Source: Actinomycetes bacterium (lineage in GTDB: Bacteria > Actinomycetota > Thermoleophilia > RBG-16-64-13). Taken from it: DNA of 55,035 nucleotides. The position numbers and the translations under genes were made by a program. Shown piece after piece: positions 3,663 to 39,400 of this stretch; positions within the stretch are counted from its first letter, which is position 1; every line of letters starts with the position of its first letter. Below the pieces are notes generated by a model. The model was not told the origin of the DNA. It ran no database searches and saw only the letters and a list, made by a program, of their open reading frames with translations. The stretch lies in NCBI GenBank assembly GCA_021802965.1, contig JAJZQZ010000001.1, forward strand, positions 1 to 55,035, written 5' to 3'.

Positions 3663-3667
3663 GCCCG

Positions 3668-3886: not shown

Positions 3887-3964
3887 TCTCTCCCCCGGCG
3901 GGACGTCGTCGAACGGGACTGCCACCGTGTGGACATTGTACACCACGTCCTCTCCGCCCAGCCC

Positions 3965-3993
3965 TTGCCAAGGGCCCGTCGCCGGTGCATACT
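3965..3993 (+). promoter_or_regulatory. candidate sigma-A type promoter for rpmB
   Basis: TTGCCA (3965-3970), a 17-nt spacer, then CATACT (3988-3993). It lies about 95 nt upstream of the rpmB ATG. Confidence 0.35.
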
Positions 3994-4087
3994 ATGGCGT
4001 CCCGCGTCAGGAGCGGCACGTTTCTGTGCCCCGTGGCCCGGCACTCACCGACGACCCGGGTCACCACCCACGAGGAGTGAAGATACG

Positions 4088-4279
4088 ATGTCGAGGATCT
4101 GCGCAGTCTGCGGCAAGACGCCCAGCTTCGGGAACAACCGGAGCCACTCCATGCGGGCGACCAAGCGCCGCTGGAACGTCAACGTACAGAAGGTGCACAT
4201 GCTCATCAAGGGCAAGCCGGTGCGCGCCTACGTGTGCGCCAAGTGCCTGAAGGGCCATAAGGTCCAGAAGGTCGCCTAG
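4088..4279 (+). CDS. rpmB: 50S ribosomal protein L28
   Basis: ATG 4088, in frame within ORF 3713..4279. MSRICAVCGKTPSFGNNRSHSMRATKRRWNVNVQKV is a canonical L28 sequence. Confidence 0.95.
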   Translation: MSRICAVCGKTPSFGNNRSHSMRATKRRWNVNVQKVHMLIKGKPVRAYVCAKCLKGHKVQKVA

Positions 4280-4300
4280 CCGCAACTTCTCACCGGGGGA

Positions 4301-4790
<490 letters not shown>

Positions 4791-4798
<8 letters not shown>

Positions 4799-6084: not shown

Positions 6085-6768
6085 CTATGCGTATCCCTGC
6101 TTGCGCAGCAGGCTGTCCAGTCCTCCACTCGATGCCGGAGTCGCGGCCCGGCCGGTCCCCCGTGTGGCTTCGACCCCCGCCAGGGCCTCCAGGCTCTGGC
6201 GCACGTACCGGGCGATGACGTCGGCCTCGAGGTTCACCGTCCGCCCGGGCGCGATCGTCCGCAAGGTGGTCTCAGCGAGCGTATGGGGGATGATGCCGAG
6301 CCCGAAGTCGGCTTCGCCGACGTCGGTCACGGTGAGTGAGATGCCGTCGACGGCGATCGAGCCCTTGCCGGCGACATATCCCCGCAGCTCCGTGGGCAGC
6401 GAGATGCGCACCTCCAGCGCGATGCCTCGCGTGCGCGCCGAGAGCACCCGGGCCACCGCGTCGACGTGCCCCAGCACCATGTGCCCGCCGAGGCGGTCGC
6501 CCAAAGCCATGGCTCGTTCCAGGTTGACCTCGTCTCCCGGCCGACGAGAGCCTATCGTGGTGTGCTCGAGGGTCTCGGCCATGCAGTCCACGGCGAACGA
6601 GGAGGAGTCGAGCTGGACGACGGTGAGACATGCCCCGTCGACCGCGATGGAATCGCCCAGGCGCGTGCCCCCAAGGACCCGTCGAGCGGCGACGTGGAGG
6701 TGGGCGCCCTCTCCGCGGCGGGTCAGGCGGAGGACCCGCCCGGTCTCCTCGATGAGGCCGGTGAACAT
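6085..6768 (-). CDS. ribE: riboflavin synthase alpha chain
   Basis: ORF of 227 aa with the canonical [11 protein letters not shown]-terminus and an internal repeat. Confidence 0.95.
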
Positions 6769-7907
6769 CAGGGCTCTCCTACGTAGCCGCTGAGCATGAC
6801 GTCGACGCCGCTCTTCTCCACCTCGACGTCGCGCAGGCGAAGAGCGGCATCCATGTGGTCATAACCCCGCGCCGGCAGCGGTCCAGGCGATGCGGCTCCC
6901 CCGGCCACCACGGGGGCCACGAAGGCGACGATGCGATCGATCATGCCCGCGTCCCACCAGGAGGCGGCCAGGCGCGCGCCCCCCTCGAGGAACACGCTCT
7001 GCACTCCGCGCTGGGCCAGAAGCCGGCCCACCGTGCGGGGCTCGGGGTGGCCGTCCGCTCCGAGGGGCACGGGTGCCACTTCCACAGCCCACGTGCGCAC
7101 CTCCTCGAGGCGCGCCTCCGGGATCTCGCTCGAGCACACGAAGAGCACGGGTCCCTTGTCGACCGTGCGCACCAGGGCTGCCTCACGCGCCACTTTCAGC
7201 TGCGTGTCGACCACCACTCGCAACGGTTGCCGATGGACCGGCACATCGCGAGCGGTGAGCTCGGGGTCGTCGTGGCGGAACGTCCCCGCGCCCACGAGCA
7301 CCGCGTCCGAACGCGCCCGGAAGGCGTGCACGCGCAGGCGGCTCTCCTCCCCCGAGATCCACTTGGAGTCGCCGGACTCGGTGGCCACACGGCCGTCGAT
7401 GGTCATCGCGTACTTATACGTGACGAAGGGCAGGCCCGCCGTGACGTGCTTGCGAAAGGCATCGTTCTGGCGTTTGGCTCGGTAGGCGAGGTCGCCCTCG
7501 GGCATGTCCACGGTGATGCCGGCGTCGAGGAGCCGCTGGATGCCCTTGCCGCACACCCAGGCAGAGGGGTCCTCCGCTCCCACGACCACGCGACTGACTC
7601 CCGCCGCTATGAGAGCGTCGGCGCACGGAGGCGTGCGACCATGATGGCAACACGGCTCCAGGGTGACGTAGACGGTGGCCCCCGTGAGGCGGCCGGCCGA
7701 CTCATCGCCGACGGCAGCCTTCATGGCCACGATCTCGGCGTGATCCTGGCCCGCCGCGGCGTGGAAGCCCTGGCCGACCACCCGACCGCCCACGACCACC
7801 ACGGCCCCCACGACAGGGTTGGGACTCGTGAGCCCCCGCCCTCGCTCGGCCAGGGCCAAGGCGGTCTCGAGAAAATGCCGGTCGATGTCGGTCAACGCCA
7901 CGCTCAT
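6768..7907 (-). CDS. ribD: bifunctional riboflavin biosynthesis deaminase/reductase
   Basis: ORF of 379 aa. Cytidine/dCMP deaminase zinc motif (HAEI..., TLEPCCHHGRTPPC) followed by a reductase domain. Confidence 0.95.
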   Translation of the reverse strand: MSVALTDIDRHFLETALALAERGRGLTSPNPVVGAVVVVGGRVVGQGFHAAAGQDHAEIVAMKAAVGDESAGRLTGATVYVTLEPCCHHGRTPPCADALIAAGVSRVVVGAEDPSAWVCGKGIQRLLDAGITVDMPEGDLAYRAKRQNDAFRKHVTAGLPFVTYKYAMTIDGRVATESGDSKWISGEESRLRVHAFRARSDAVLVGAGTFRHDDPELTARDVPVHRQPLRVVVDTQLKVAREAALVRTVDKGPVLFVCSSEIPEARLEEVRTWAVEVAPVPLGADGHPEPRTVGRLLAQRGVQSVFLEGGARLAASWWDAGMIDRIVAFVAPVVAGGAASPGPLPARGYDHMDAALRLRDVEVEKSGVDVMLSGYVGEP

Positions 7908-7954
7908 GCCCCTTCATCACAGGCTTCGGGGTAAGGGCGCGGGCACGCGGACGC

Positions 7955-8080
7955 GTGCTGCGGTCTTCTCCCTTCCAGACTGTGACTGTCGGCCCAGGGA
8001 TTCCACCTGGTCTGCCCCGAAGGGCTCGCGGGCTGTGACCGCCGGTAGGGAATCGCACCCAACCCCGAAGACCATGAACA
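7955..8080 (-). promoter_or_regulatory. FMN riboswitch (RFN element) leading the rib operon
   Basis: The minus-strand RNA reads GGUCUUCGGGGUUGGGUGCGAUUCCCUACCGGCGGUCACAGCCCGCGAGCCCUUCGGGGCAGACCAGGUGGAAUCCCUGGGCCGACAGUCACAGUCUGGAAGGGAGAAGACC. This matches the conserved RFN core blocks and sits directly upstream of ribD. Confidence 0.9.
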
Positions 8081-8171
8081 GATACTCCTGCTCAGACCGA
8101 GGAATCGTAGCACAGAGCAGCCTGGCCCGCCACAGTCAGGGCCCGGGCGGGGCGACCTGCGCCGCCCTCCG

Positions 8172-26780: not shown

Positions 26781-26852
26781 TGCCCACGGCAGGAATCGAA
26801 CCTGCGCTCCTGGCTCCGGAGGCCAGTGCTCTATCCCCTGAGCTACGTGGGC
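26781..26852 (-). tRNA. tRNA-Arg (anticodon CCG), no encoded CCA
   Basis: The reverse complement GCCCACGTAGCTCAGGGGATAGAGCACTGGCCTCCGGAGCCAGGAGCGCAGGTTCGATTCCTGCCGTGGGCA folds as a cloverleaf. It has a 7-bp acceptor stem, a CTCCGGA anticodon loop and a TTCGATT T-loop. The sequence after the discriminator A is CTTC, not CCA. Confidence 0.92.
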
Positions 26853-27862: not shown

Positions 27863-28282
27863 CTAGTCGGCTGGGTCCCCCGGCCCTTCGACGAGATGCC
27901 GTATCGCCTCGGGGGCATACTCTTCGGGATCGTGGCGGAACAGGGGGTTCTGGCAGCCCCGCCATGAATAGCGAGAGGGATAGGCGTGCTCGATAGCCGC
28001 CTGGCATTCGCGCAGGGGCCTCCTTCGAGCGAGAAGAGCTCCATAGACGTCGCGGCGCGAAGACGGCTCCATGGGCGCCAGGTCGAGCTCGGGCCGGAAG
28101 ATCTTCTGGACGCACCCGAAGTACGTCGTGTCTCCATCGGTGTAGGCGTACACGTATCGGCACGATGTGCGGATGCAGTGGCTCGGATATACGACGTGCT
28201 CGCAGATGACATCGCAGCGGTGGCAGGCCATCTTGCCGGTGTCTTCATGCTCTCTTGCAGCGTGATGTGGTCTAGAGCTCAT
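27863..28282 (-). CDS. Cys-rich hypothetical protein
   Basis: ORF 27863..28300; I prefer ATG 28282. It has 8 Cys (CHRCDVICEH..HCIRTSCRY..GC...C...C) and ends 4 nt before the rnz start. No family recognised. Confidence 0.5.
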   Translation of the reverse strand: MSSRPHHAAREHEDTGKMACHRCDVICEHVVYPSHCIRTSCRYVYAYTDGDTTYFGCVQKIFRPELDLAPMEPSSRRDVYGALLARRRPLRECQAAIEHAYPSRYSWRGCQNPLFRHDPEEYAPEAIRHLVEGPGDPAD

Positions 28283-28289
28283 ATCCTGC

Positions 28290-28295
28290 AGTATA
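28290..28295 (-). promoter_or_regulatory. candidate -10 box for a leaderless transcript
   Basis: Minus-strand TATACT lies 7 nt upstream of ATG 28282, in a locally AT-richer patch. No convincing -35 box. Confidence 0.25.
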
Positions 28296-28371
28296 CACAA
28301 GGCCGTCGCCCGGCCGCACGCAGGTCATGCTGTTCTCTCTCGCGAACCACTCCGCCGCGGATGCCCGTCTT

Positions 28372-29322
28372 CTATCCCACATCCGACTCCGTCCTCGTCC
28401 CCGGCACAAGACGCACGCGACCGAGAGACCTGTCAGTGGCCCAACGCAGGATCGCCGGTTCGAAGACGACGCCCCCCGAGGCCCCCATATGCACCTGCTC
28501 GCTGCAGAACACCGCCCCATGAAGGAGAGTGCCCTCCAGGCGCAGGGAGCCACCGTCGACGACGATCACGGCGAACATGTCCCCCAGGGACGACACACTC
28601 AGGCTCGCTCCGCCGGTGACCACGATCAGGGCTGGGGTCTCCGGGGCGCTCCCGGCTGCGTCGTTCCCGCCCGGGCTGGGATCGCCGGCCGGCGACCAGA
28701 GCGTGTCGGCATACTCGACGTAGCCCAGCCCATCCCGCTCAAGCAGGAGCACGGAAGCGTGAGAACCGTGGGCCATCTCTTCCCGGATCTGGAACAAAGA
28801 TCCCTCATCCAGAGACCACCTCTTTGGCAAGACCGATGACGCGACGTCGGGCCCGAGCATCGCGGCTGGGGGCGAGACTCTGGTGACGACAGGAGCGACG
28901 GTTCCTGTACCGCGCGGTGACGATATGGCCGCGACTGTCCGTGAGTCAGGCCACACAAGTCGATCCGCGACCACGGCTGCGTACGGCAGATCGATGCCGT
29001 CCTGCGCCCTCTCGACGCGGGTCCCGAGTCGACGGTCGGGCCACATGGGCACCCACGCCCGCAGTGTTCCCGGTCTATCGGCTTCGTTCCATTCGAGCTC
29101 GCCGGGCCTGCCCGGTCCGAACTCTTCGACTCGCGCCCCCCACTGGCGACGGGCCGACCCGGCCATTCTGAACAGACGTGTGTCGGCGGCGACGGACTCG
29201 GCGGCTGCGTCGCGCTCCTGGATGAGCAGTGATTCGCCGCCCTGCACCAGGACGGCCAAGCCTGCGCACAGCGCCATGGCGCCCAAGCAGGTCAGCAGCA
29301 CCACCAACAGTACCGACCCCAT
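28372..29322 (-). CDS. PilX-like minor pilin / pilus assembly protein (module A)
   Basis: ATG 29322, within ORF 28372..30000. The upstream part of that ORF overlaps the preceding gene in another frame. PilX_N-like start GSVLLVVLLTCLGAMALCAGLAVLV...IQERDAAAES, with no G-F cleavage motif. Confidence 0.6.
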   Translation of the reverse strand: MGSVLLVVLLTCLGAMALCAGLAVLVQGGESLLIQERDAAAESVAADTRLFRMAGSARRQWGARVEEFGPGRPGELEWNEADRPGTLRAWVPMWPDRRLGTRVERAQDGIDLPYAAVVADRLVWPDSRTVAAISSPRGTGTVAPVVTRVSPPAAMLGPDVASSVLPKRWSLDEGSLFQIREEMAHGSHASVLLLERDGLGYVEYADTLWSPAGDPSPGGNDAAGSAPETPALIVVTGGASLSVSSLGDMFAVIVVDGGSLRLEGTLLHGAVFCSEQVHMGASGGVVFEPAILRWATDRSLGRVRLVPGTRTESDVG

Positions 29323-29357
29323 CTCCCTGGGTCGTGAGCCGCGCTGTGGCCGAACGT

Positions 29358-30029
29358 TCAACGAGCCACCCACAGAAGCGACTCCACAGGCAGTCCGCGC
29401 GTGGTGCCGTCGGCCGGGTCGGCGGCCAGGAGCCTGCACGAGACAGTGTCGATCCAGCGGAGATCTTCCGTAGAGACAGTCGTCTCCGCTCCGGTCACGC
29501 TTTCGGTGGTCAGCCAGGCCTGACCAGGAACGCGCCGGCCGACAGAGAACACGCTCGAGTCCGACACGTTCTCGAGCATGGTCTTGTGATCTACATAATG
29601 GGAGTGATCGGTAGGAGAGGCGAGAGCGCTTGTCTGCCACGGACCTCTCCGGCGCATGACGTTCCCGCCCGCGATCTCCCACTCCACCAATTGGGCCGAG
29701 CCGTCGGCAGGCGAACGGGTGACGACGACCAGCTGATGCGAGGCGGCAAAGATTAGGGGGCCTCCGAGGGCCACGGTGTCGCCTGAGCCAACGTCCAGAC
29801 CCACTCCTGCGAGCCGCAGATCTCGCTCCAATCGAGCCGCGGCGACTCGCGCCTGGGCACTCCAAATCACCCGGTCGGCCGCGCTCACTCCCACCCTCTG
29901 GACTGAGATCCAGAGGGGAGCGCAGGCCAACGCAAGGACCAGAGCCAACGCGAGGGCCACTAACAGCTCGATGAGGGTGAAACCCGCGCCCGCCGACCAC
30001 GCCGAGGCCCTAGAAGAAGAGATCGACAC
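29358..30029 (-). CDS. PilW-like minor pilin with prepilin N-terminal methylation motif (module A)
   Basis: GTG 30029, preceded by GGGAGG, within ORF 29358..30113. Class III signal AGAG/FTLIELLVALALALVL. It overlaps the upstream gene by 20 nt. Confidence 0.7.
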   Translation of the reverse strand: MSISSSRASAWSAGAGFTLIELLVALALALVLALACAPLWISVQRVGVSAADRVIWSAQARVAAARLERDLRLAGVGLDVGSGDTVALGGPLIFAASHQLVVVTRSPADGSAQLVEWEIAGGNVMRRRGPWQTSALASPTDHSHYVDHKTMLENVSDSSVFSVGRRVPGQAWLTTESVTGAETTVSTEDLRWIDTVSCRLLAADPADGTTRGLPVESLLWVAR

Positions 30030-30729
30030 GCCTGCCTCCCGCCGGGATCCAGGACTGCATGGCTCTCTCCCACGACACCGACGCCGATCCGGCGCCGGTC
30101 GACAGTTGCACAAGAAGGGGACTCGCCTGTGTCACCTTCTGGACCGCCGCACCCGATGACAGGATCTGGACCTCGACGACCCCAGCCTCAGGCACGTGGA
30201 CGGCGGCCCACGATCCGAGCGCCGGATCGCCCTCAGATGAGGTCGCATCGACCGCCGACGGCCGCGGCGTCACCGGGTCGTCCGACGGAACGAGGGTGCG
30301 CGCCGGCGGTCCCCAGGGACCGGACGCCTCACGCATGCGCACGACGACTTCTTGGCCCGCCCGGGAAGACCAGATGATCGGCGAACCGAGGGTGGTCTCG
30401 TCGGTCCAGTCCGGGCTCATGCAGACCAGCAGCCACCCGTCGCTCCACACACCCACGATCCCGTCGATGAGGGCGGCTCCGTCGCGAGTGTCCCCGGTGA
30501 GACCGCTCCCCCAGCTCCAGCGAAGATCCCGCACCGTCGGCCCCCAGGTCCATCCTTGTTGGACCTCGGGTGGCAAACCCGGACCCGACGCGCCCATCGC
30601 GGTCTCCCAGCCGGCTATTCTTGTCTGCAGCGAGAGCAGCACGTGCACGATCGGGCCGACAGCGAACATGAGCAGGCCCATAGCCATCACCACTTCCACC
30701 AGGGTGAACCCCTCTCGACAGCGTCTCAT
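30010..30729 (-). CDS. PilV-like minor pilin (module A)
   Basis: ATG 30729, within ORF 30010..31053. Short leader MRRCREG/FTLVEVVMAMGLL. Trp-rich globular part. Confidence 0.68.
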   Translation of the reverse strand: MRRCREGFTLVEVVMAMGLLMFAVGPIVHVLLSLQTRIAGWETAMGASGPGLPPEVQQGWTWGPTVRDLRWSWGSGLTGDTRDGAALIDGIVGVWSDGWLLVCMSPDWTDETTLGSPIIWSSRAGQEVVVRMREASGPWGPPARTLVPSDDPVTPRPSAVDATSSEGDPALGSWAAVHVPEAGVVEVQILSSGAAVQKVTQASPLLVQLSTGAGSASVSWERAMQSWIPAGGRRVDLFF

Positions 30730-30737
30730 GGTGTGGC

Positions 30738-31229
30738 TCACCACGTCTCTCTTCGGGTGAGCCCGCTCTCGGCCCGCACGACCACCCGCGACCCGGATCC
30801 CGGAGCACCGAGATAGAGGGAGCGCGCGGCGTCCGGAGAACCGAACGGAGCCACGAAGCCGATCGTGACGCCCGACGGCGATCGCCAGCGCCGGACGTTG
30901 GTGGCGCAGGCTTCGTCCCGGGACCCCGCGGTGAGTTCGCCGACCCGTCCCGTCGCCCCGCTCAGGCGGAGCTCCGATCCCCGACTCACCAGCACGAGGC
31001 GCTCGCCGCGACGAGCCGAGGCGATTTCCGCCCACGCGATGGCCAGCTGCCATCGCTGGGCCGAGTTGCGAGCGTCGTGTCTTGCCAAGACGTCCCCCAG
31101 CGTCGTGGCGGGAAGAACGGCCACCAGCGCCACTATGGCGAGAACCACCAGGAGCTCGATCAGGCTGTGACCGGCGCGGGCGTCAGTCTTGAGTGAGATG
31201 GTGAACCGGATGTGTAAGGCCTCGAACAT
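30738..31229 (-). CDS. FimT/GspH-like minor pilin (module A)
   Basis: ORF of 163 aa. Leader ...TDARAG/HSLIELLVVLAIVALV, followed by a GspH-like helix and a short beta domain. Confidence 0.68.
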   Translation of the reverse strand: MFEALHIRFTISLKTDARAGHSLIELLVVLAIVALVAVLPATTLGDVLARHDARNSAQRWQLAIAWAEIASARRGERLVLVSRGSELRLSGATGRVGELTAGSRDEACATNVRRWRSPSGVTIGFVAPFGSPDAARSLYLGAPGSGSRVVVRAESGLTRRETW

Positions 31230-31321
31230 GCCGCGAGGCTATCGCGCGGCGGCCTCCCGGGTCGATGCGACCTTAGACCTACGATGCCGGCGTGACCACC
31301 CGCCCGGCGAGGATCGCTCAG

Positions 31322-31843
31322 CTACCAGCCGACGCTGCCCGCACCGTCTATGACCTTGACCTTGATGTACGAGACGCCGGTCCCATCCACGAGCGTGTCG
31401 ACCTGGATACCGTACCGGTTGCCGCTTTCACTGACGGAGCCCACATCGAAGGTGGTGGCGGTTTCCCCGTAGAAGTCGACTGCATCGTCCCTTGCAGAGC
31501 TTGTGACCGCATTGGTCACGAGGGGTCCGACAGGGTCGACAAGGTTATCGGGTGCGACGGTCCACTGTATGGCGGGCTCGATGGCAGTCAGATCATCCGC
31601 GCTGATCAAGCGGTAGTCGTGTCGCTCCATGTTGGCGCTTTCGACTACGGTGAGCGCGTTGCGAACAAGGGTCACAGCGGCCGCGTCTTGAGCCTTCATA
31701 CGCGTCCCCAGATACGTCGGGATCGCGATCGCTGCAAGGATGGCGATGATGATGATGACCACCAACAGTTCGATGAGAGTAAAACCCGCGTCACGACGTG
31801 CCTCGCACGCTTTGCCATGGAAGAGACGCACCATCATGTTCAT
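31322..31843 (-). CDS. type IV major-pilin-like protein, paralogue 1
   Basis: ATG 31843, preceded by AAGGGAGA, within ORF 31322..32197. Leader MNMMVRLFHGKACEARRDAG/FTLIELLVVIIIIAILAAIAIPTYLG with Glu at +5. The mature part is 153 aa with no Cys. Confidence 0.9.
   Translation of the reverse strand: MNMMVRLFHGKACEARRDAGFTLIELLVVIIIIAILAAIAIPTYLGTRMKAQDAAAVTLVRNALTVVESANMERHDYRLISADDLTAIEPAIQWTVAPDNLVDPVGPLVTNAVTSSARDDAVDFYGETATTFDVGSVSESGNRYGIQVDTLVDGTGVSYIKVKVIDGAGSVGW
31716..31786. repeat. about 71-nt near-identical segment shared with 34289..34359
   Basis: I count about 8 mismatches in 71 nt by eye. The segment encodes the pilin N-terminal helix of both paralogues. Confidence 0.85.
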
Positions 31844-33225
31844 CTCCCTTCGCGTGGCCGGGCCAACATCCCGAGAAGCAAGAAGAAGATAGTGTGGACG
31901 CCCGGGACAGTGATGGAAACAAGTGAGGCGGCAAGATAGCCGGCAAGCCCGCACATCACTGCCGCGCTCTCGGGACCGAGCGCACGGCGCAACGATTGGC
32001 GCGCCGGCTCCCGGCCGACTACGCAAAGCAGGAGGAAGCAGAGAAGGGCGCCGGGTATGCCGAGGGTGACCGCCAGGTTGAGCGGCTCTGAATGAGCCTT
32101 GTCCGCGACCACAGCCGGCCCTTCTCCTTCGTCGAACTGCGGCGTACGGTAGGACTCGAACACGGCCCCCATTTGATCGGGCCCCGTTCCGAACCACGGA
32201 CGGTCCCTGATGATTGCCAACGCGATCGCCCAGGTGGCAAGCCTACCGGCGTTGCGGGCATCACTGATCGAGACGGCGCTCGCGGCGTCTTTCGCCAACG
32301 AATGCGGCTCGACCACGACACGATCGCCACGGGGCACAAGAGAAACCGCAATGGCGAGCAGGGCGGCGACTGCAATCACTCCGATCAGGCGCCGGTAGCG
32401 AGATGACCGCGTCCACAGTAGAAGACCGACAAGAAGCAAGAGACCTCCGAGCGAACCGATCCAAGCCGCCCGGCTGAACGTGAAGTAGGTCGCAGCCAAG
32501 GTCACTCCGACTCCCGCGGTCCACAGCAACGCGGCGGCCCGACCGTCAGAACGGACGGCTCGGATCACCAAGATCGGCATCATCAATGTCAGATAGCCAC
32601 CAAGTACGACAGGATTGTGGAATGTCCCGCTGCTCCGAGCGTACGTCAGGCTCGTCGAGAGGCCGCTGAAGTCCAGACCGAAGTGTTGGAGGACCGCGTA
32701 TGCGCTGACGCCCACACATGTCAGGGCGGCGGCGTCTCCCACCGTGCGCCAGGACCGCTCGTCGGACATCGTCATGGCCGTGGCCATCACAACCAAGCCG
32801 GCGAACCATACGAGCAGGCCATCGTGCCGCAAAGCGCTACCCCAGACGGCACCCGAAGGATCGACCGACACCAGCGTCGATAGGGTCAGCCATCCTGTGA
32901 GGCCGAGGCCTACGACGAGGATCGGGCTCAGACGCGTGAGCGTGATCGTCCTCGTCAGGAGCGCGCATGCCCACCAAGCCGCCATGAGCGCGCCCAGCAG
33001 GAGAACCGCCTGCGCTTTGACGCCGTAGAAGCCGTCGAAACCGTCGGACGGATTGAAAGCGATGATGGGAATGGTGACAACGCCGGCCAATAGGCCTAAC
33101 CGCGCGGCGCCGAGGGCGCGACGTATCGCCACACACCTAGTCGAAGCCTGCTCGCTAGGGCTGCCGAGCGCGCAGCCGATGCTGCCTAGACTGGTCGAAA
33201 GCCGTACGTCGCGAGTACCTGCCAT
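31840..33225 (-). CDS. O-antigen ligase (Wzy_C) family polytopic membrane protein
   Basis: ORF of 461 aa with many TM segments. Wzy_C-like blocks YFTFSRAAWIGSLGG, RPWFGTGPDQ and KAHSEPLNLAVTLGIPG. Its stop overlaps the pilin-1 start by 4 nt. Confidence 0.8.
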   Translation of the reverse strand: MAGTRDVRLSTSLGSIGCALGSPSEQASTRCVAIRRALGAARLGLLAGVVTIPIIAFNPSDGFDGFYGVKAQAVLLLGALMAAWWACALLTRTITLTRLSPILVVGLGLTGWLTLSTLVSVDPSGAVWGSALRHDGLLVWFAGLVVMATAMTMSDERSWRTVGDAAALTCVGVSAYAVLQHFGLDFSGLSTSLTYARSSGTFHNPVVLGGYLTLMMPILVIRAVRSDGRAAALLWTAGVGVTLAATYFTFSRAAWIGSLGGLLLLVGLLLWTRSSRYRRLIGVIAVAALLAIAVSLVPRGDRVVVEPHSLAKDAASAVSISDARNAGRLATWAIALAIIRDRPWFGTGPDQMGAVFESYRTPQFDEGEGPAVVADKAHSEPLNLAVTLGIPGALLCFLLLCVVGREPARQSLRRALGPESAAVMCGLAGYLAASLVSITVPGVHTIFFLLLGMLARPREGR

Positions 33226-33228
33226 CGT

Positions 33229-33789
33229 CTATCCCGCCCCACCCGGCTGCCCACCTTCGAGCTTCCGCAGGATCGTCGATGCGTACCGATATCCCGGGTC
33301 CACCTTCATGACGTCAAGCAAGATGCTTCTCGCCTCAGCTGTGTTGCCGGAAGCGATCAAGCTCTGTGCCAAGAACGTCCGGTGCTTGGGGCTCGGGTCG
33401 AGAGCGACTGCCTCCTGGAAGACGCGCACCGCTGCGTCCGGTCTTGCCTGGTGGTTCAGGTAGTTGAAGGCGAGCTCGACCCGCGTCTGGACGTCGCGCG
33501 GGTCTGCTGCGATCGTCCTCTCCTGATACGGGAGGGCCTCATCGAATCTACGAAGGAGCACCAGGTTCACAGCCAGTCCCTTCAATGAAGCAAGATCGTC
33601 GGGATGGTCGGCCAGCACATCCAGGTAGAGCTCGTTCGCCTCTGCGAGCGCGCCTCGGTCCTCCAGCGCCCGCGCTCGTCCGAGCCTGGCGTCCCCGCAT
33701 GCGCTCAGCGCGATGCCGAGGCACACCATCAAGATCACCAGCTTGCCGGAGCGCCTTGCGTGTGAGAACGGGTTCATCTTTCGCCTCAT
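33229..33789 (-). CDS. TPR-repeat lipoprotein
   Basis: ORF of 186 aa (alternative start ATG 33777). Lipobox LSAC, followed by about 4 TPR-like repeats. Confidence 0.72.
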   Translation of the reverse strand: MRRKMNPFSHARRSGKLVILMVCLGIALSACGDARLGRARALEDRGALAEANELYLDVLADHPDDLASLKGLAVNLVLLRRFDEALPYQERTIAADPRDVQTRVELAFNYLNHQARPDAAVRVFQEAVALDPSPKHRTFLAQSLIASGNTAEARSILLDVMKVDPGYRYASTILRKLEGGQPGGAG

Positions 33790-33806
33790 GCCTCCTGAGA
33801 AGCGGA

Positions 33807-33835
33807 GGGGCAGGGCTCTCAGTAAGCCCTGCCCC
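33807..33835 (-). terminator. strong hairpin immediately downstream of pilin 2 (attenuator/partial terminator)
   Basis: Perfect 11-bp stem GGGGCAGGGCT / AGCCCTGCCCC with a 7-nt loop. On the minus strand it is followed by UCCGCUUCUC, which is only moderately U-rich. Confidence 0.5.
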
Positions 33836-33915
33836 TTCCAAGAACCCAGAGTGGGCCACTCAGGTGATCAGCTCAGATCGTCCTAAGCGCTCTCTCCGGT
33901 GCGATTTTTGACCGA

Positions 33916-34398
33916 CTACCAGGTTTGCGGGTTGGCGCCGATGTAGAACGTGTTGCCCGGAGCGAACGTAGTGGCGTCAGCGCTCTTATTGACATGCACC
34001 CCGAACGTGCGACCGGATTGAGAAACGGTGCCCACTTCGTAGTTGGCGCCATCCATGCCCGAGAAGTCGACCGCATTACCAGAGGCCTGCGCGGTCGGAC
34101 CGGCGGCAACGCCGCCACCCGCTCCGGCATAGACGAAGACGATCGACGGCTCGATGTCCTCCAGCATGGGCGACACGATGAGATCGAATGCGCGCGTGTC
34201 GGTGAACGCCGACTCGACGGCGGTCATGCCGTTGCGCACTAGGGACTTGGCCGCCGCGTCCTGGGCCTTCTGCCGCTGCCCGAGGAACGTCGGGATTGCG
34301 ATGGCGGCGAGGATGGCGATGATGATGATCACCACCAACAGTTCGATGAGGGTGAAACCGCCCTCGCCCTTCATCCTCTTCGAGAGTTTGCTCAACAT
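33916..34398 (-). CDS. type IV major-pilin-like protein, paralogue 2
   Basis: ATG 34398, preceded by AGGAGG, within ORF 33916..34476. Leader MLSKLSKRMKGEGG/FTLIELLVVIIIIAILAAIAIPTFLG. Shares the C-terminal block AVDF.G......VG.VS.SG...G..V with paralogue 1. No Cys. Confidence 0.9.
   Translation of the reverse strand: MLSKLSKRMKGEGGFTLIELLVVIIIIAILAAIAIPTFLGQRQKAQDAAAKSLVRNGMTAVESAFTDTRAFDLIVSPMLEDIEPSIVFVYAGAGGGVAAGPTAQASGNAVDFSGMDGANYEVGTVSQSGRTFGVHVNKSADATTFAPGNTFYIGANPQTW
34289..34359. repeat. partner of the 31716..31786 repeat
   Basis: See 31716..31786. Confidence 0.85.
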
Positions 34399-34440
34399 GG
34401 TGCCGACCTCCTGTGTTCGAGACTGTACGCACGGCACCCG

Positions 34441-34562
34441 CAAACAAAAAGGCCTGCGGTGTGCCCGGCAAACCACAGACCTGAGTCTGGTGGCAGTCCA
34501 GCCGACCCCGTGGGCCCTGTGACTTTGCGTCCCACCCTTGCGAGTGGTTTGCCCTTTGCACC
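34441..34562 (-). promoter_or_regulatory. c-di-GMP-I (GEMM-I) riboswitch: aptamer about 34489-34562 plus intrinsic terminator 34441-34481
   Basis: The minus-strand RNA reads GGUGCAAAGGGCAAACCACUCGCAAGGGUGGGACGCAAAGUCACAGGGCCCACGGGGUCGGCUGGACUGCCACC. It carries the GEMM-I hallmarks: GGGCAAACC, a GNRA-capped hairpin, GGGACGCAAAG and a second hairpin, closed by GGUGCA/UGC(C)ACC. Downstream is GGUCUGUGG, a 13-nt loop, CCGCAGGCC and UUUUUGUUUG. Confidence 0.85.
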
Positions 34563-34571
34563 TTCGCCCTT

Positions 34572-34601
34572 AGTATGCCCCCCTAGTCAAATCCTAGACA
34601 A
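34572..34601 (-). promoter_or_regulatory. candidate promoter for the riboswitch-pilin transcript
   Basis: Minus strand: TTGTCT (34596-34601), an 18-nt spacer, then CATACT (34572-34577). This would start transcription a few nt before the aptamer. Confidence 0.3.
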
Positions 34602-34769
34602 CTTTCGCTCAACATTTCGCCCGGTGTCGAATCTGGGGCGCAACGCCGGGTCTTGGGGGACTACCGCGGACGCCAGGTCTATCGGCCACCGTAGCAGGGA
34701 GCTTTAGGGGTACGCCCTACGTCCTTGGGATGACGCCGGCGGAGGAGATAGGCCCGAGGACCGGCGGGC

Positions 34770-35108
34770 TCAGCGGCTGAGGTTCTCGAGCAACCGCGTG
34801 AGTACATAGAGGCGATCCTTGTGGTCGTGGATCGCCTTCGCGAAGGTGTCGAGACCCTGGCGAAAATCTTCGTCAGCGCACAGCTGCCATGCGCCGTCGC
34901 GGTCACGTTCGAGGGCGCCTTGTGAGGACAACCGGGCGGCCGCTTGACTCAGATCTTCCGGCCGCCGGCCGATGTCGCGGGCCAGGTCGACCACCGAAAC
35001 CGATTCCGAGGCGTGAGCCGCGAAATAGATGAGGACATCCCAGGCTTCGAACGTCGACACGTATGTGTCGACGAACTTCACCAGTATGTCCCTCTCGCGT
35101 TCACTCAT
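34770..35108 (-). CDS. small winged-helix-like hypothetical protein
   Basis: ORF of 112 aa, preceded by GGGAGG. The central stretch VSVVDLARDIGRRPEDLSQAAARLSSQGALER looks like an HTH plus wing. No family recognised. Confidence 0.5.
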   Translation of the reverse strand: MSERERDILVKFVDTYVSTFEAWDVLIYFAAHASESVSVVDLARDIGRRPEDLSQAAARLSSQGALERDRDGAWQLCADEDFRQGLDTFAKAIHDHKDRLYVLTRLLENLSR

Positions 35109-35268
35109 ACGCCGGGCAGCCTCCCACGGACCCTCACCCTACAGGCGGCTCTAGTGTAGTGGGTCTGCCATAATAAGTCGAGGACATCGCCGAGCAAGGG
35201 AAGAGACAGTAGATACCGCCGATCCAGCACCAGACGACAGGGGCCCCTCCCTACGCGTCTCGGCGTGC

Positions 35269-35706
35269 GTGGTGAAACGAGGCCGCGTACTCCTGGTCGA
35301 GCAGCAGAAGGGCGCGCGCCGCTACTGGCTCCTTCCAGGCGGAGGCGTCCAACGTGGCGAGTCCCTGGTCGAAGCGCTCGCCCGGGAGGTGAACGAGGAG
35401 TGTGGCCTTCACGTGGAGGTCCTCACGCCCCCACTGGCCGTCGTCGAGACTATCTCCCCAGACGCGGGAAGGTCACGTCACCTGGTTCACCTGGTCTTCG
35501 CCGCCCGAGCCACCGGACTCGATGAACCGTCCCCCGGCGACGCCACCGTGCGCGACGCCCGCTGGTTCGGGCCCGAGGAGCTGGGTGAATTGGTGATCCA
35601 CCCTCCACTGCACGACCTGCTCGCGCGGTGGCTCGAGTCTTCCCCCGACGAGATGACCCGACCGCTGCCTCCGCAGGCCTGGGGCGGGGTGCGCTGGGTG
35701 CACTAG
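35269..35706 (+). CDS. NUDIX hydrolase
   Basis: ORF of 145 aa, GTG start. Nudix box GGGVQRGESLVEALAREVNEECG. Confidence 0.85.
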   Translation: MVKRGRVLLVEQQKGARRYWLLPGGGVQRGESLVEALAREVNEECGLHVEVLTPPLAVVETISPDAGRSRHLVHLVFAARATGLDEPSPGDATVRDARWFGPEELGELVIHPPLHDLLARWLESSPDEMTRPLPPQAWGGVRWVH

Positions 35707-35714
35707 CCCTTTCT

Positions 35715-35740
35715 CCCCGACGACACTCGTATCGTCGGGG
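35715..35740 (+). terminator. hairpin after the NUDIX gene
   Basis: Perfect 9-bp stem CCCCGACGA / TCGTCGGGG with an 8-nt loop. The T-tract that follows is weak (GCGTTCTTTGG). Confidence 0.4.
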
Positions 35741-35821
35741 CCGACTCTGCGTTCTTTGGTAAAGGTCGGGCACGTCTGTGCCGATGACGGTGTGAGGACC
35801 CCGATGACGAGGAAGGATGCG

Positions 35822-37372
35822 ATGCGTAGGCAGCGATCGGCCGGCGGTTTCACCCTCATCGAGGTCATGGTCGCGGTCCTCCTTCTTCTCGTGGCGATGG
35901 CAGGCTTCGTGCCGTTCTTCCTGCAGGGTCTCGGTCAGGCCTCTTCCACCCGCTACCGCAGCACGGCGACCAACATCGCCCGGCAGCGCATGGAGGAGAT
36001 CCGCCAGCTCGACTACCGGGAGATACCGGTGGGTGATCCTGCGCGCAACTGGTACAGCGACGCCCTGGCGACCAAGTTCGGGGTCGCCGATTCAGTGCGG
36101 GGCGCGGACTTCACGACCAGCTACGCGGTCGAAGACGTCGCCTATGGCTCAGGCAACCTCAAGAAGGTCACCGTGACGGTCACGTGGGCTGCTCCCCCGG
36201 CTCCGTCCCCCGCCATCGTGACCAGCCTCATCCACCAGCAATACTTGGGACCGCGCGGTCGCCTGCTGACGGTCGCTCCCGTCGCGGCCGACGACTTGGG
36301 CACTCCGTTCCCGCAGGTGCAGCGCACGCTCGACCAGGTGACCGTGAAATATCACATCGCGGAGGCCGACTGGGGGCTCGTCTACCCCGATCCGCAGGAT
36401 CCCGCTTCAGTGGCCTTCAACGTCTACATGCGTCTGACCCTGGTCGACGACCATGGCGCGGCGATCACCGTGGGTGATCCGGCCACGGACTATAAGATCT
36501 TGAATACCGCCCTGCAAAAGACCTGGGACACCAACGGCACGCTCACCGATGTGTACTTCGAATTCCCGTTCGATCGCCTACTGATCCCCGATGGCTACTG
36601 GGAGATGCAGGCGGTGGCGTACAACGAGTACGATGAGCCGGGCAACGTATGGCGTATGCGGCTGAGGTTCGAGGAAGGCGCCCCTAACCCGCCCACCGAC
36701 TTCATCGCGATCCCCGGAGCCGACAACCAATCGGTCATGCTCAGCTGGGTGCCCGGGATCGAGCGCGACAGAGACCATTACGTCCTGCAGCGGCAGCGCC
36801 TGAACCTGAATCCAGACCTCACTCTGAGCTACGGCCCTTGGGAGGATGTGAACACCAACCTCAGCCCCGACTCAGTCGTGTTCACCGACGTAGGCAGTGT
36901 CGCCGGCGCCAAGGACCCCTGGGGCTCCGACACAGGCAGCATCAAGATAACGAACTACTATCAGTACCAGATCTGGGCGGTCGACTTCGCTTCGACTCCC
37001 AACTCAGGCCCGCCCGCCACCGTCGGGGCCCAGCTTCCTGGCCCCACGACCACGACCACAATCGCTACGGGAGCGACGACGACCCTGGCTCCGACGACGA
37101 CCCTGGCTCCGACGACGACCCTGGGACCGACCACGACGATCTTGTCCACGGTGCAGATCGTCAACAAGACGAGCTTGGACTACTCGATCACGGTGCGCGA
37201 CTCGAAGAACCACACGGTCTTCACGGGCACTGCAGCTGGTCTTAGCACTCTCTCCATCCCCAGCCTGCCGGCCGACTCGTACTCTGTGGACGCGCGCAGC
37301 GGAAGCGCGCATCTATCCACCAGCTTCCAGGTGCCTCGGGACAACGGTCTCACCGTTCTGGAGATCCTGTAG
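35822..37372 (+). CDS. large modular PilV-like minor pilin (module B)
   Basis: ATG 35822, preceded by GAGGAAGGA (alternative ATG 35804), within ORF 35756..37372. Leader MRRQRSAGG/FTLIEVMVAVLLLLVAMAG and a PilV-like core ending KKVTVTVTW. An FN3-like segment follows (PNPPTDFIAIPGADNQSVMLSWVPG...YQYQIWAVD), then a Thr-rich linker and a roughly 75-aa C-terminal domain. Confidence 0.75.
   Translation: MRRQRSAGGFTLIEVMVAVLLLLVAMAGFVPFFLQGLGQASSTRYRSTATNIARQRMEEIRQLDYREIPVGDPARNWYSDALATKFGVADSVRGADFTTSYAVEDVAYGSGNLKKVTVTVTWAAPPAPSPAIVTSLIHQQYLGPRGRLLTVAPVAADDLGTPFPQVQRTLDQVTVKYHIAEADWGLVYPDPQDPASVAFNVYMRLTLVDDHGAAITVGDPATDYKILNTALQKTWDTNGTLTDVYFEFPFDRLLIPDGYWEMQAVAYNEYDEPGNVWRMRLRFEEGAPNPPTDFIAIPGADNQSVMLSWVPGIERDRDHYVLQRQRLNLNPDLTLSYGPWEDVNTNLSPDSVVFTDVGSVAGAKDPWGSDTGSIKITNYYQYQIWAVDFASTPNSGPPATVGAQLPGPTTTTTIATGATTTLAPTTTLAPTTTLGPTTTILSTVQIVNKTSLDYSITVRDSKNHTVFTGTAAGLSTLSIPSLPADSYSVDARSGSAHLSTSFQVPRDNGLTVLEIL
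37075..37128 (+). repeat. 3 x 18-nt tandem repeat (GACGACGACCCTGGCTCC) encoding TTTLAP repeats
   Basis: Two perfect copies and a third with 2 mismatches, inside the Thr-rich linker TTTTTIATGATTTLAPTTTLAPTTTLGPTTT. Confidence 0.9.
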
Positions 37373-37389
37373 ATGGAGGAGACGTCGGA

Positions 37390-38136
37390 GTGAGGCGCTT
37401 GCTCGCGGGTTCGATCGATTGGAGTCGCCGACGGCTGTGCGCCGGGTCGGCCGAAGGACAGTCCGGCTTCAGTCTGGTCGAGTTGCTGGTGGCCATGGTC
37501 GTGCTCATCGTGGTGATGGGCGCGACCTTCGGCATCTGGCTCGGCCTCGAGAATGTCTACACCTTCACGAACGACGACATGGTGGCCCAGGAGCAGGCTC
37601 GGACCGCCATGGGCGAGATGGTGGAGCTCATCCGCACGGCTCGGAGACCGGCGACTGTTCCCGACGAGGCTCTGAACGCCGTCATGCCGGTCGCCGGCCG
37701 CACCGAGCTCACTGTCTGGAGCGATGTGGACCGTGCGCCCGATCACGGGCTCGAGCTGATCCGCTTCCGGGCCGATCACCCGGCCGGCGCCCCTAATGAA
37801 CAAGTGCTCTATCGTGACCAAGCGACGGTCGGGGCGAGCAGTCGCTCCTGGACGTCGGAGCGCCTGGTCACGCCAAACGTCAGCAACTGGTTCGACCCTG
37901 CCAGACCCAGCGACGAGACCGGCTGGCTCTTCTCCTATTACAACGGAGCGGGAGAACGCCTGCTCTTCGACGACGAGATCCTTGGCTATACCGGGACCAT
38001 CGAGCACGTGATCCCCGATCCCAACTCGATCCGGGAGGTGCGGATCAATCTGTTGGTGGACCTCTATAAGGACCGGGCCCCCATCACCCATCAGCTCACC
38101 TCAGTCGTCCAGCCACGGAATCTCCGGCAGTACTGA
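37390..38136 (+). CDS. PilW-like minor pilin (module B)
   Basis: ORF of 248 aa. GTG start preceded by GGAGGAG. Signal ...AEGQSG/FSLVELLVAMVVLIVVMG. Confidence 0.7.
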   Translation: MRRLLAGSIDWSRRRLCAGSAEGQSGFSLVELLVAMVVLIVVMGATFGIWLGLENVYTFTNDDMVAQEQARTAMGEMVELIRTARRPATVPDEALNAVMPVAGRTELTVWSDVDRAPDHGLELIRFRADHPAGAPNEQVLYRDQATVGASSRSWTSERLVTPNVSNWFDPARPSDETGWLFSYYNGAGERLLFDDEILGYTGTIEHVIPDPNSIREVRINLLVDLYKDRAPITHQLTSVVQPRNLRQY

Positions 38137-38146
38137 TACTCGGGAG

Positions 38147-39400
38147 ATGAACATGCACAGTTGCGATTCGCAGACGGACACACGGCCGGGCAGGGTGCGT
38201 CTCACCACGAGCGACGGCTCGGCGGTCATCATCGCGATGATGTTCATCCTCGTGATGCTGGGGTTGGGAGTCGCCCTCTTCACACTCATCAAGTTCTCGA
38301 TCAACGGAACCGAACTCGAGCGCAAGGAGGTGAAGGCGTTCAACGTGGCGGAGGCCGGGATCGACGCCGGCATGCTCGCCCTGAAGCTCGAGTGGCCGGA
38401 CCAGATCGCCACTACGGTCGACGCAGTCGCTCTGAGAAACCACTTCGACGCCAACGTGTTCAGGGATCCTTCGCGCAGCTCTCCCAGCGAGTTCATCCAG
38501 GTCGCGCTCTACGACAACAACGGTACGACCGACTACAGCGACGCAAATCCGGCCGTCGACCTAGACAGCGAGAGTGCATCCGGACCTGGGGACCCCCGGG
38601 GGGATGACATGATGTGGGTGGATAGCCGGGCCAACGTCGACGACGACCGCCACCGGATCCTCGTCCTCGCGAAGCGGGAGCGCTGGAACCTCAATCTGCC
38701 GAACAAGGCCCTGTTCGCATCGACACTGATGGCGAATCCGAACGTCCGGGTCGCCGTGGACAGCGCTTCCACCCCGCCTTCCCAGACCGACCTCGCCGTG
38801 TACTCCGCGCCCGACCCGCGGGATGTGGAGTTACTCGACGGCGTGACGCAATATGCCGGGGCCCCCGATTGGTCGCAGTGGATAACCTCGGGAACCACGG
38901 GCAAGCTTCAAAGCGTGGCCAAGGCTTCAGGCACGTACTTCGACGACGATCCAGGTACCCCCTATCCGAGCATCGCGGAAGGGGTCGACCTGCTCGTGAA
39001 CGGAGACCCGAGCGGCAAGATCATCTACCTGAAGTCGAGCACTGCGATCGAGATCGCGGGCAACACCCAGATCGCGACACGCGAGCACCCTGTGGTGCTG
39101 GTCATGGATACGCCGTCGACCGTCACGAACGCCCTCGACTTCAGGGGCACGGCCGACTTCTACGGCGTGGTGATCAGTCTCAGCAACCTCCAGGCGCGGG
39201 GGACTTCGTCGTTCTACGGCTCCGTGCTCTGCGCCGGCCAGTTCGACAACCGTGGGCGAGGCGTCAGCCCCGAGATCAACTACAACGGCGACATCATCGC
39301 CATGCTCAGCCGCAAGTTCACCATGAGCGTCTCGATCGTGCCCAACACGTGGCAAGAGTATACGGTACCCAACACCACCCTCGCCGTCGCGGGCGGGTAG
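38147..39400 (+). CDS. PilX-like minor pilin / putative tip protein (module B)
   Basis: ORF of 417 aa; ATG 38153 has the better spacing to GGGAG. PilX_N-like start DGSAVIIAMMFILVMLGLGVALF...AFNVAEAGIDAG. Large C-terminal part. Confidence 0.65.
   Translation: MNMHSCDSQTDTRPGRVRLTTSDGSAVIIAMMFILVMLGLGVALFTLIKFSINGTELERKEVKAFNVAEAGIDAGMLALKLEWPDQIATTVDAVALRNHFDANVFRDPSRSSPSEFIQVALYDNNGTTDYSDANPAVDLDSESASGPGDPRGDDMMWVDSRANVDDDRHRILVLAKRERWNLNLPNKALFASTLMANPNVRVAVDSASTPPSQTDLAVYSAPDPRDVELLDGVTQYAGAPDWSQWITSGTTGKLQSVAKASGTYFDDDPGTPYPSIAEGVDLLVNGDPSGKIIYLKSSTAIEIAGNTQIATREHPVVLVMDTPSTVTNALDFRGTADFYGVVISLSNLQARGTSSFYGSVLCAGQFDNRGRGVSPEINYNGDIIAMLSRKFTMSVSIVPNTWQEYTVPNTTLAVAGG

Follow-up and report, generated by a model that had tools for sequence, protein, structure and literature searches.

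The pilin and ligase locus

A 55,035-nt stretch of DNA (contig JAJZQZ010000001.1 of assembly GCA_021802965.1, GC content ~66%), termed here the window, displays four genes at positions 31322–34398 of its minus strand, in the order pilin 2, tetratricopeptide repeat (TPR) lipoprotein, Wzy_C protein (referred to as the ligase) and pilin 1. The ligase is probably a pilin-directed O-oligosaccharyltransferase (O-OTase) of a Thermoleophilia-like actinobacterium. Genes were called with a GC3-based open reading frame filter together with Pfam scans. The four genes are:

33916–34398, minus strand: pilin 2 (pilU orthogroup), 160 aa; Pfam N_methyl, E-value = 1.2e-8
33229–33789, minus strand: TPR lipoprotein, 186 aa; signal peptide and lipobox L-S-A-C; TPR_19, E-value = 6e-14
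31840–33225, minus strand: membrane enzyme of the Wzy_C family and WaaL fold (ligA), 461 aa; PF04932, E-value = 1.2e-22
31322–31843, minus strand: pilin 1 (pilD orthogroup), 173 aa; N_methyl, E-value = 2.5e-9

A first-pass annotation had placed the same four genes at these coordinates and on this strand, and the sequence and the Pfam matches bear this out. The ATGA-type coupling that it described between the ligase stop and the pilin 1 start is exact, as the ATG of pilin 1 (31843–31841) overlaps the TGA of the ligase (31842–31840). The ligase does start just after the TPR gene, as proposed, with a gap of 3 nt (33226–33228) and not 4 nt. The two flanking pilins, taken to be paralogous, show 49% identity over 140 aa. 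A GGAGG Shine-Dalgarno sequence is present upstream of the pilin 2 start.

The Wzy_C enzyme

The first-pass annotation called for a PF04932 profile search and a topology prediction, and both gave positive results (E-value = 1.2e-22; 12 transmembrane helices). The PF04932 match covers residues 240–395 of the ligase with 80.7 bits, relative to a gathering cut-off of 31.7. An AlphaFold model of the ligase displays the 12 transmembrane helices, with a mean predicted local distance difference test score (pLDDT) of 87.8 and a predicted template modeling score (pTM) of 0.88. By the positive-inside rule both the N- and C-termini are inside, and an 84-residue loop at positions 296–379 is outside.

A Foldseek search of the model against the PDB yielded a sole significant match, the WaaL structure 7TPG (probability 1.0; TM score 0.56/0.63). 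7TPG was also the only match in an hmmsearch against PDB sequences (E-value = 4e-7), and no O-OTase structure is among the PDB matches by fold or by sequence. The ligase is a member of the Wzy_C/WaaL superfamily. Among NCBIfam families, similarity was found to IctB (TIGR00947), where the ligase scores 71.2 bits and the equivalog cut-off is 366.4, and to an exosortase-associated putative ligase family, far under its cut-off.

Residues R252, R328 and H378 of the ligase are invariant or more than 90% conserved in alignments of 9, 24 and 149 relatives, and so, or nearly so, is the motif P343-x-x-G346-x-G348. In the alignment with 7TPG, R328 is in an RLxIW motif and H378 in an AHxD motif. The three residues can be equated, by motif and not by direct alignment, with the E. 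coli WaaL residues R215, R288 and H338 and the Neisseria PglL residues R224, R298 and H349, which are needed in those enzymes (PMC3643930). The conserved His is also required in TfpM (PMC9829042). Because the Arg/Arg/His set and the PxxGxG motif are conserved, the ligase looks catalytically competent.

Gene order in related species

Neighborhoods of related genes were reached independently from the ligase, from pilin 1 and from the TPR protein, and were verified by tblastn. The relatives are contigs of metagenome-assembled genomes (MAGs) of Thermoleophilia and Gaiellales (designated L001, L002, etc.), and 12 distinct cassettes were compared. MAGs of the same two groups are the source of those pilin 1 homologues that carry names. 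The ligase has few close homologues: a word-indexed search gave about ten, a profile search of 1.84 billion proteins gave five 50%-identity representatives with more than 460 bits, a single-protein scan of genome contigs gave the source Actinomycetota MAG plus distant matches only, and a metagenome contig scan with the ligase gave two loci.

In 11 of the 12 distinct related contigs the pilin cassette includes a Wzy_C gene and occupies one and the same chromosomal site. As a control, 19 loci with distant homologues of Wzy_C in other phyla were inspected, and none has a prepilin gene nearby. Because of this difference, the arrangement of pilin and ligase is more than chance. The shared site is bounded on one side by rny-miaB-miaA-dapF-aminotransferase-dut and on the other by a metallo-beta-lactamase gene, a tRNA gene and lplA. 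Members of the pilU and pilD orthogroups, followed by minor pilins, are present in the cassettes of all relatives. The layouts are:

pilU-TPR-ligA-pilD: the window and L026
pilU-ligA, convergent ligB, pilD: L001, L003, L027 and two JGI contigs
pilU-TPR-pilD-ligase: L031 and L024
pilU-ligA-pilD, without a TPR gene: L028; L029 is similar, with a group II intron in addition
ligB adjoining pilD alone: L030
pilU-TPR-pilD plus minor pilins, without a Wzy_C gene: L032, positions 6384–8158 of a 1.6-Mb contig

Thus the Wzy_C gene stays in the cassette though the gene order is rearranged. The expected recurrence in related genomes is seen for the association of pilin and Wzy_C genes; the exact order pilin-TPR-ligase-pilin is one of at least four layouts. 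The pilin cassette is conserved, and the ligase is an accessory gene that varies within it. Much the same behavior is shown by tfpO among the pilin alleles of Pseudomonas.

Many relatives have, in convergent orientation, an additional Wzy_C paralogue (ligB, ~600 aa):

L003, 9250–11037, minus strand: ligB
L001, 9937–11736, minus strand: ligB
L027, 4565–6418, minus strand: ligB
L030, 5031–6872, minus strand: ligB

The match of ligB to Wzy_C_2 is sub-threshold (19.8 bits, with a cut-off of 28.5). With two ligases and two pilins side by side, each pilin may have an enzyme of its own.

It should be mentioned that the intron of L029, a Thermoleophilia MAG contig, is at positions 3567–5553, where it separates the Wzy_C gene from the pilin 2 orthologue. 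It shows the Rfam D1–D4 domains (121 bits) and a reverse-transcriptase open reading frame at 3949–5553.

Fusion of Wzy_C and prepilin sequences

An exhaustive search yielded three divergent proteins that are placed just below the ligA clade, P0162, P0163 and P0168; the lengths in this set are 624, 637 and 675 aa. In each, a full Wzy_C enzyme comes first; then come an Arg-rich linker, an intact prepilin cleavage site G/FTLIELLVV (the slash marks cleavage) and a complete pilD-type pilin, with a C-terminus of ..GW or ..SW. In these searches the top 149 relatives were scanned for the prepilin motif with a regular expression, and Pfam was run on a sample of 10 proteins.

The 90% cluster of P0163 has members in three independent assemblies, including the NCBI Thermoleophilia MAG proteins MHB1343362.1 and MHB0981707.1; therefore the fusion is no one-off assembly error. 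The enzyme part of P0163 shows 34% identity to the window ligase (E-value = 3e-41). Its pilin part shows 71% identity to pilin 1, and this includes the loop LVDPxGPxVTNAVTS. The fusions retain the Arg/Arg/His residues and the PxxGxG motif.

The topology of such a fusion is coherent: with a cytoplasmic C-terminus of the ligase, the linker would serve as a prepilin leader, and the pilin helix would cross outward. Fusions of this type are classical Rosetta-stone evidence, here suggesting that the enzyme works with pilin 1, in agreement with the ATGA coupling in the window. No description of enzyme::pilin polyproteins was found in the literature searched.

A candidate fusion of another type was rejected. 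P0007 (659 aa, N_methyl plus Wzy_C, L001 8001–9980) displays a pilin N-terminus, then nonsense sequence and then a ligase, an order that is the reverse of the genuine fusions (ligase followed by pilin). The L001 assembly is rich in indels, and dapF and miaA are likewise split on this contig; P0007 is the product of a frameshift artefact.

A fusion, and translational coupling as in the window, would also suit a stoichiometric chaperone. The ligase would then be a non-catalytic polytopic partner that chaperones or docks pilin 1, in the manner of TfpY and TfpZ, pilin accessory proteins of P. aeruginosa that are poorly understood, and its variable presence is what is seen with accessory genes. This is very improbable, as the Arg/Arg/His residues and the PxxGxG motif are strictly conserved in 149 relatives, fusions included, which argues for retained catalysis.

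The pilins and their candidate acceptor sites

Both genes that flank the TPR and ligase genes encode pilins with a class III signal peptide, as defined by N_methyl and TIGR02532 matches. The leader of pilin 1 is 20 aa and that of pilin 2 is 14 aa, with a G/FTLIELL cleavage site. The model of pilin 1 (pLDDT 86.7) displays a long helix at positions 23–74 plus a beta-sheet; a Foldseek search of this model against the PDB gave no significant match. The mature pilins 1 and 2 have no Cys residues, and because of this the family appears to lack the disulphide-bonded loop that is typical of proteobacterial type IVa pilins.

The C-terminal ends ..GSVGW and ..NPQTW were read correctly in the first-pass annotation. 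Its proposal that the acceptor differs from the C-terminal Ser used by TfpO is upheld as well: Trp is the C-terminal residue in 60 of 60 pilin 1 homologues, mostly as ..GW. On these sequences a TfpO-type C-terminal acceptor is excluded.

In the pilin 1 model, residues 97–120 separate the first beta-strand from the second. In the 60 homologues the segment is flanked by Pro and enriched in Ser/Thr, with Ser or Thr present at T110 in 67%, at T114 in 52%, and at positions 104, 105 and 108 in 43%–53%. The Ser/Thr- and Pro-rich loop 103–118, with T110 and T114, is thus a candidate acceptor loop.

Orthologues of pilin 2 from ligase-bearing cassettes have a loop of the form A-x-P-(T/S)-A in six of six cases (T102 in the window) and a penultimate Ser/Thr in five of six; pilin 2 itself ends in T159-W160. 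T102 or T159 may be the acceptor in pilin 2. The L032 orthologue of pilin 2, from the cassette that has no Wzy_C gene, displays an acidic insert, PAADDDDAQAEDDE, in place of A-x-P-(T/S)-A, and its C-terminus is NW.

The TPR lipoprotein

The TPR lipoprotein is predicted to be on the outer face of the cytoplasmic membrane. Orthologues are found in L026, L031/L024 and L032, and in L026 the TPR and ligase genes overlap.

TPR sequences are also found as part of ligases. Among the top 149 ligase relatives, 105 are 600 aa or longer, and C-terminal TPRs are present in all seven of the long relatives that were sampled. In ligB a thirteenth hydrophobic helix is followed by a TPR domain, which would place this domain outside the membrane. 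A comparison by hhalign of the free TPR family profile with the ligB TPR domain gave a probability of 94% (E-value = 1.5e-7); this is moderate evidence for a link, as TPRs match each other easily. The free TPR gene and the ligB TPR domain are mutually exclusive among the cassettes sampled. The 13 homologues of the free TPR protein that were found (42%–54% identity) include none that is fused to Wzy_C.

The first-pass annotation included the TPR gene in a predicted pilin O-glycosylation cassette. The gene is not a fixed part of such a cassette, since it is present without a ligase in L032 and the ligase is present without a free TPR gene in L028 and L029. The tie of the TPR protein to the ligase is weaker than its tie to the pilins. 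The lipoprotein is a component of the pilin cassette that may aid the ligase, and it does not define a glycosylation module; a general role in pilus assembly is also possible.

A function as a secretin pilotin of the PilF/PilW/Tgl type was considered and rejected. Profiles of these pilotins gave weak matches only to the TPR protein, far below the cut-offs, and there is no secretin gene in the window.

The ligase as a probable pilin-directed O-oligosaccharyltransferase

The first-pass annotation proposed that the enzyme glycosylates one or both pilins. This is partly supported and is the best reading at present, with added weight from the conserved synteny and the fusions; that the pilins are glycosylated, the glycan donor and the acceptor residue are inferred. 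The ligase most probably works in the manner of the PglL/PglS and TfpO/TfpM enzymes. Enzymes encoded outside the window would assemble a glycan on undecaprenyl phosphate, and the lipid-linked glycan would then be flipped to the external side of the membrane. The outside loop 296–379, with R328 and H378, would bind the pyrophosphate-glycan together with R252 at the membrane edge, and the glycan would be moved onto a Ser/Thr hydroxyl in an exposed pilin loop. The transfer would precede incorporation of the pilin into the fiber, at a stage when the N-terminal helix still tethers the pilin to the membrane.

Pilin 1 would be the best-supported substrate, because it is coupled to the ligase in the window and fused behind the ligase in relatives; the candidate loop is D103–R118, with T110 and T114. 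A further candidate substrate is pilin 2, with T102 in its A-x-P-T-A loop or T159 as the possible acceptor. The TPR lipoprotein on the outer membrane face would most likely be a partner that presents the acceptor or handles the pilin; this role is proposed because TPRs are fused to related ligases and because of the parallel with WsaA/WsaB discussed below.

Several points weigh against this interpretation. The 55-kb window has no genes for an initiating phosphoglycosyltransferase, a flippase or glycosyltransferases. PglL_A (PF15864) and Wzy_C_2 (PF11846) gave no match in the ligase even at E-values up to 10; this is not disqualifying, since TfpO and TfpM (420–470 aa) are likewise without these domains (PMC12645811). 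The domains common to the known O-OTase classes are all present in WaaL as well (PMC12645811), and sequence alone cannot tell protein O-OTases from ligases that are directed at lipids or glycans. Because of these shared domains, and because only WaaL is found in the PDB, phylogenetic clustering with WaaL or with O-OTases, which the first-pass annotation would have used as a test, cannot decide the function. L032 keeps the full pilin cassette and the TPR gene without a Wzy_C gene; because of this, the enzyme appears to be dispensable for the pilus and the TPR protein would have a role that is independent of the ligase. In the pilin 1 loop no Ser/Thr is invariant in the 60 homologues. The change in the pilin 2 loop of L032 may be tied to the missing ligase; this is suggestive, and being a single case it carries limited weight.

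Some of these points would suit an ordinary envelope-glycan ligase or polymerase (WaaL/Wzy-like) that attaches or polymerises a surface polysaccharide and is located among pilin genes by accident or through shared regulation. WaaL is the sole structural and PDB relative, the PglL-specific motifs are absent, the pilus genes of L032 do without Wzy_C, the best NCBIfam similarities (IctB and the exosortase-associated putative ligase) are far under their cut-offs, and the Wzy_C family is functionally mixed (PMC12645811). Such a role for the enzyme is nevertheless quite unlikely. The gene is kept in the cassette across layouts (11 of 12 relatives, against none of 19 distant loci), it is coupled to the start of pilin 1 by the ATGA overlap, and without a direct functional link one would hardly expect pilin fusions in three or more divergent clusters. 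No lipopolysaccharide (LPS) or glycan-synthesis genes are found in the 55 kb, nor in the 7–8-kb flanks on each side of the relatives' cassettes. In addition, we know of no Actinomycetota that make a lipid A-core.

The ligase belongs to neither of the two pairs of classes described. It is outside the PglL/PglS classes, as the class motifs are absent, and outside the TfpO/TfpM classes, as its pilins have no C-terminal Ser/Thr acceptor. A comparison with known systems shows the following.

TfpO, TfpM and PglS are encoded beside their pilin substrates (PMC9829042, PMC12645811, PMC3643930). TfpO (PilO; P. aeruginosa 1244 and Acinetobacter) and TfpM (Moraxellaceae) resemble the ligase in being Wzy_C-only proteins of similar size (420–470 aa, 461 aa here), in having a gene that immediately adjoins a co-oriented pilin gene (here by way of the ATGA overlap), in their variable presence as accessories among pilin loci, and in the conserved catalytic His. 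They differ in that they modify a C-terminal Ser/Thr after a disulphide loop, whereas the pilins here end in Trp and have no Cys, and in that their genes are downstream of the pilin, whereas the ligase gene is upstream of pilin 1. Their hosts are proteobacteria; the host here is an actinobacterium, with a TPR lipoprotein in the cassette and enzyme-pilin fusions in relatives.

PglL (Neisseria and others) and PglS (Acinetobacter baylyi, specific for ComP) modify a Ser in an internal, exposed, Ala/Pro-rich pilin loop, which is the type of site predicted here, and they share the Arg/Arg/His residues and the P-x-x-G-x-G motif. They have an extra C-terminal periplasmic domain, which in PglL is TPR-like (PMC2943079); this may be compared with the TPR that is free in the window and fused in ligB. 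Unlike these enzymes (520–620 aa, with PglL_A and Wzy_C_2), the ligase is without both domains and is 100–150 aa shorter. PglL is also a general oligosaccharyltransferase with no linkage to pilE, whereas the ligase is pilin-linked.

The S-layer protein O-OTases of Gram-positive bacteria offer a parallel in layout. In Geobacillus stearothermophilus the TPR-only WsaA (168 aa) precedes WsaB, a Wzy_C protein without TPRs, as in the window, and in Paenibacillus alvei WsfB has the TPR fused, as in the ligB of relatives (PMC2943079). The hosts are monoderm, as is presumed here. The Wsa and Wsf genes, however, are inside S-layer glycan clusters with glycosyltransferases and an ABC exporter, and the enzymes target S-layer proteins; the neighbors here are pilins and housekeeping genes, with none for glycans.

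WaaL of Cupriavidus metallidurans (7TPG) has the same fold and the same pyrophosphate-binding and catalytic residues, with 19% identity. Its glycan acceptor is lipid A-core and its gene belongs to LPS loci, a context that is absent here.

We put forward tentatively, at somewhat less than even chances, a fifth, actinobacterial class of pilin O-OTase, the first for a presumed monoderm type IV pilus. This class would use an internal loop sequon on Cys-free, Trp-ending pilins, and it would have an extracytoplasmic TPR module, either free or fused. Sister lineages would make an enzyme-substrate polyprotein in which the C-terminal tail of the ligase is the prepilin leader, so that cleavage by prepilin peptidase would separate each pilin from the enzyme that glycosylates it. 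Cyclic di-GMP (c-di-GMP) would switch the whole cassette via the WhiG-type promoter and the riboswitch described in the next section.

To our knowledge, and in the literature searched, pilin O-glycosylation by Wzy_C enzymes is known experimentally from Proteobacteria only. A dedicated enzyme in deep-branching Actinomycetota would, if true, bring pilin glycosylation into another phylum and, presumably, into cells with a single membrane, and would represent an O-OTase class with a different acceptor rule. The enzyme::pilin fusions would, if true, be a rare case of an enzyme and its substrate in a single chain that is split by a signal-type peptidase. The concrete candidate residues, T110/T114 in pilin 1 and T102/T159 in pilin 2, make the acceptor question testable. 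New O-OTases and sequons are sought for the production of bioconjugate vaccines (PMC9829042).

Regulatory sequences around pilin 2

Three elements are found around the pilin 2 gene:

34679–34706, minus strand: promoter-like motif of the sigma-WhiG/sigma-28 type, TAAAG-N16-GCCGATAG, ~280 nt upstream of pilin 2
34488–34562, minus strand: c-di-GMP-I-GGC riboswitch aptamer (Rfam RF03167) in the roughly 280-nt 5′ untranslated region of pilin 2, between the promoter-like motif and the gene
33804–33839, minus strand: GC-rich hairpin after the pilin 2 stop, with a stem of ~15 bp

The WhiG-type motif has one match in the window, where 0.01 would be expected by chance. It has one mismatch, at the last base; the exact consensus with a perfect −10 element gave no match. 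The consensus was taken from type IV pilus promoters of Rubrobacter, which are under RsiG-c-di-GMP-WhiG control (PMC8325347). The motif is at the equivalent place in five relatives (L001, L002, L003, L027 and L030). It is found in the form TAAAG-N15/16-GCCGATA upstream of the major pilin in L001 (7683–7709), L002 (7464–7489), L003 (6955–6980), L027 (2130–2155), L030 (4063–4088) and L029 (127–153, minus strand). A sigma-70 promoter scan of positions 28000–35800 found nothing.

The riboswitch has a score of 59 bits, equal to the gathering score (E-value = 3.9e-13), and its sequence is conserved. In L001, L027 and L030 the pilin 2 orthologue is preceded by the same element, and in L029 by one of the c-di-GMP-I type.

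The 126-nt spacer that follows pilin 2 has a predicted folding energy of −62.1 kcal/mol (z = −3.96), and none of 200 shuffled sequences folds as well. The hairpin has no clear U-tract and was not flagged by a terminator scan; it is likely to act as an attenuator or terminator, though it could instead stabilise the mRNA. Because of the WhiG-type site, the riboswitch and the hairpin around its gene, pilin 2 looks like a highly expressed major pilin under c-di-GMP control. The TPR, ligase, pilin 1 and minor pilin genes would be expressed via read-through or from a separate start. Control by c-di-GMP would link the system to the WhiG-RsiG switch of Rubrobacter.

Neighboring genes

Four genes of the minor-pilin type are packed tightly downstream of pilin 1, and on the other side of the cassette a divergent group of pilin-like genes (module B) is present:

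30738–31229, minus strand: minor pilin, GspH/FimU-like, 163 aa; N_methyl, E-value = 7e-6, and a weak GspH match
30010–30723, minus strand: minor pilin-like protein, 237 aa, start MRRCREGFTLVEV; N_methyl, E-value = 4e-4
29358–30029, minus strand: minor pilin, PilW/GspJ-like; likely GTG start at 30029, with GGGAGG upstream
28372–29322, minus strand: membrane-anchored protein of roughly 316 aa in the PilX/GspK position
35756–39400, plus strand: module B, three large pilin-like proteins of 538, 248 and 417 aa, divergent

The positions of the 163-aa and the 237-aa genes are kept in relatives; the N_methyl match of the 237-aa protein is just under the cut-off. The protein encoded at 28372–29322 had no family match in profile scans. 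Its slot is filled by proteins of 321–335 aa in L002, L029, L031 and L032.

The 538-aa protein of module B has a PilV-like N-terminus and a Thr/Pro-rich linker, TTTLAPTTT, which is encoded by an 18-bp tandem repeat of 3.6 copies at 37074–37137. The 417-aa protein has no family match. NUDIX and MarR-like genes (34770–35706) stand between module B and pilin 2. The same trio is found in L029, where a 546-aa N_methyl gene that resembles the module B gene is on the same side. Module B is possibly part of the same pilus system as the ligase cassette; glycosylation of its Thr-rich linker, which the first-pass annotation raised, is pure speculation.

These neighbors bring up a further alternative, that the enzyme functions in pilus biology with another acceptor, i.e. 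the minor pilins, the module B protein or a pilus-associated polysaccharide, and that pilins 1 and 2 are neighbors or partners of the enzyme and not its substrates. The ligase shares a tightly packed operon with the four minor-pilin genes, and the module B linker is mucin-like, with a similar gene in L029; the loops of the major pilins, as noted above, have no invariant Ser/Thr. The natural fusions, on the other hand, join the ligase to a pilin 1-type protein and not to minor pilins, and no module B is present within the fetched flanks of most ligase-bearing relatives. The Pro/Thr linkers of Actinomycetota are, moreover, classically O-mannosylated by PMT-type enzymes. Another acceptor is unlikely.

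There is no pilus ATPase, platform or secretin gene in the 55-kb window. The remaining genes of the window are housekeeping genes: the rib operon, metK, priA, a Liv-type ABC transporter, corA, lplA, dut, dapF, miaA/B, rny, recA/X and ftsK. A tRNA gene (26781–26852, minus strand) adjoins the metallo-beta-lactamase-fold gene that bounds the pilin cassette, and its position is conserved in relatives. An FMN riboswitch (7959–8076, minus strand; 108 bits) is present upstream of the riboflavin operon.

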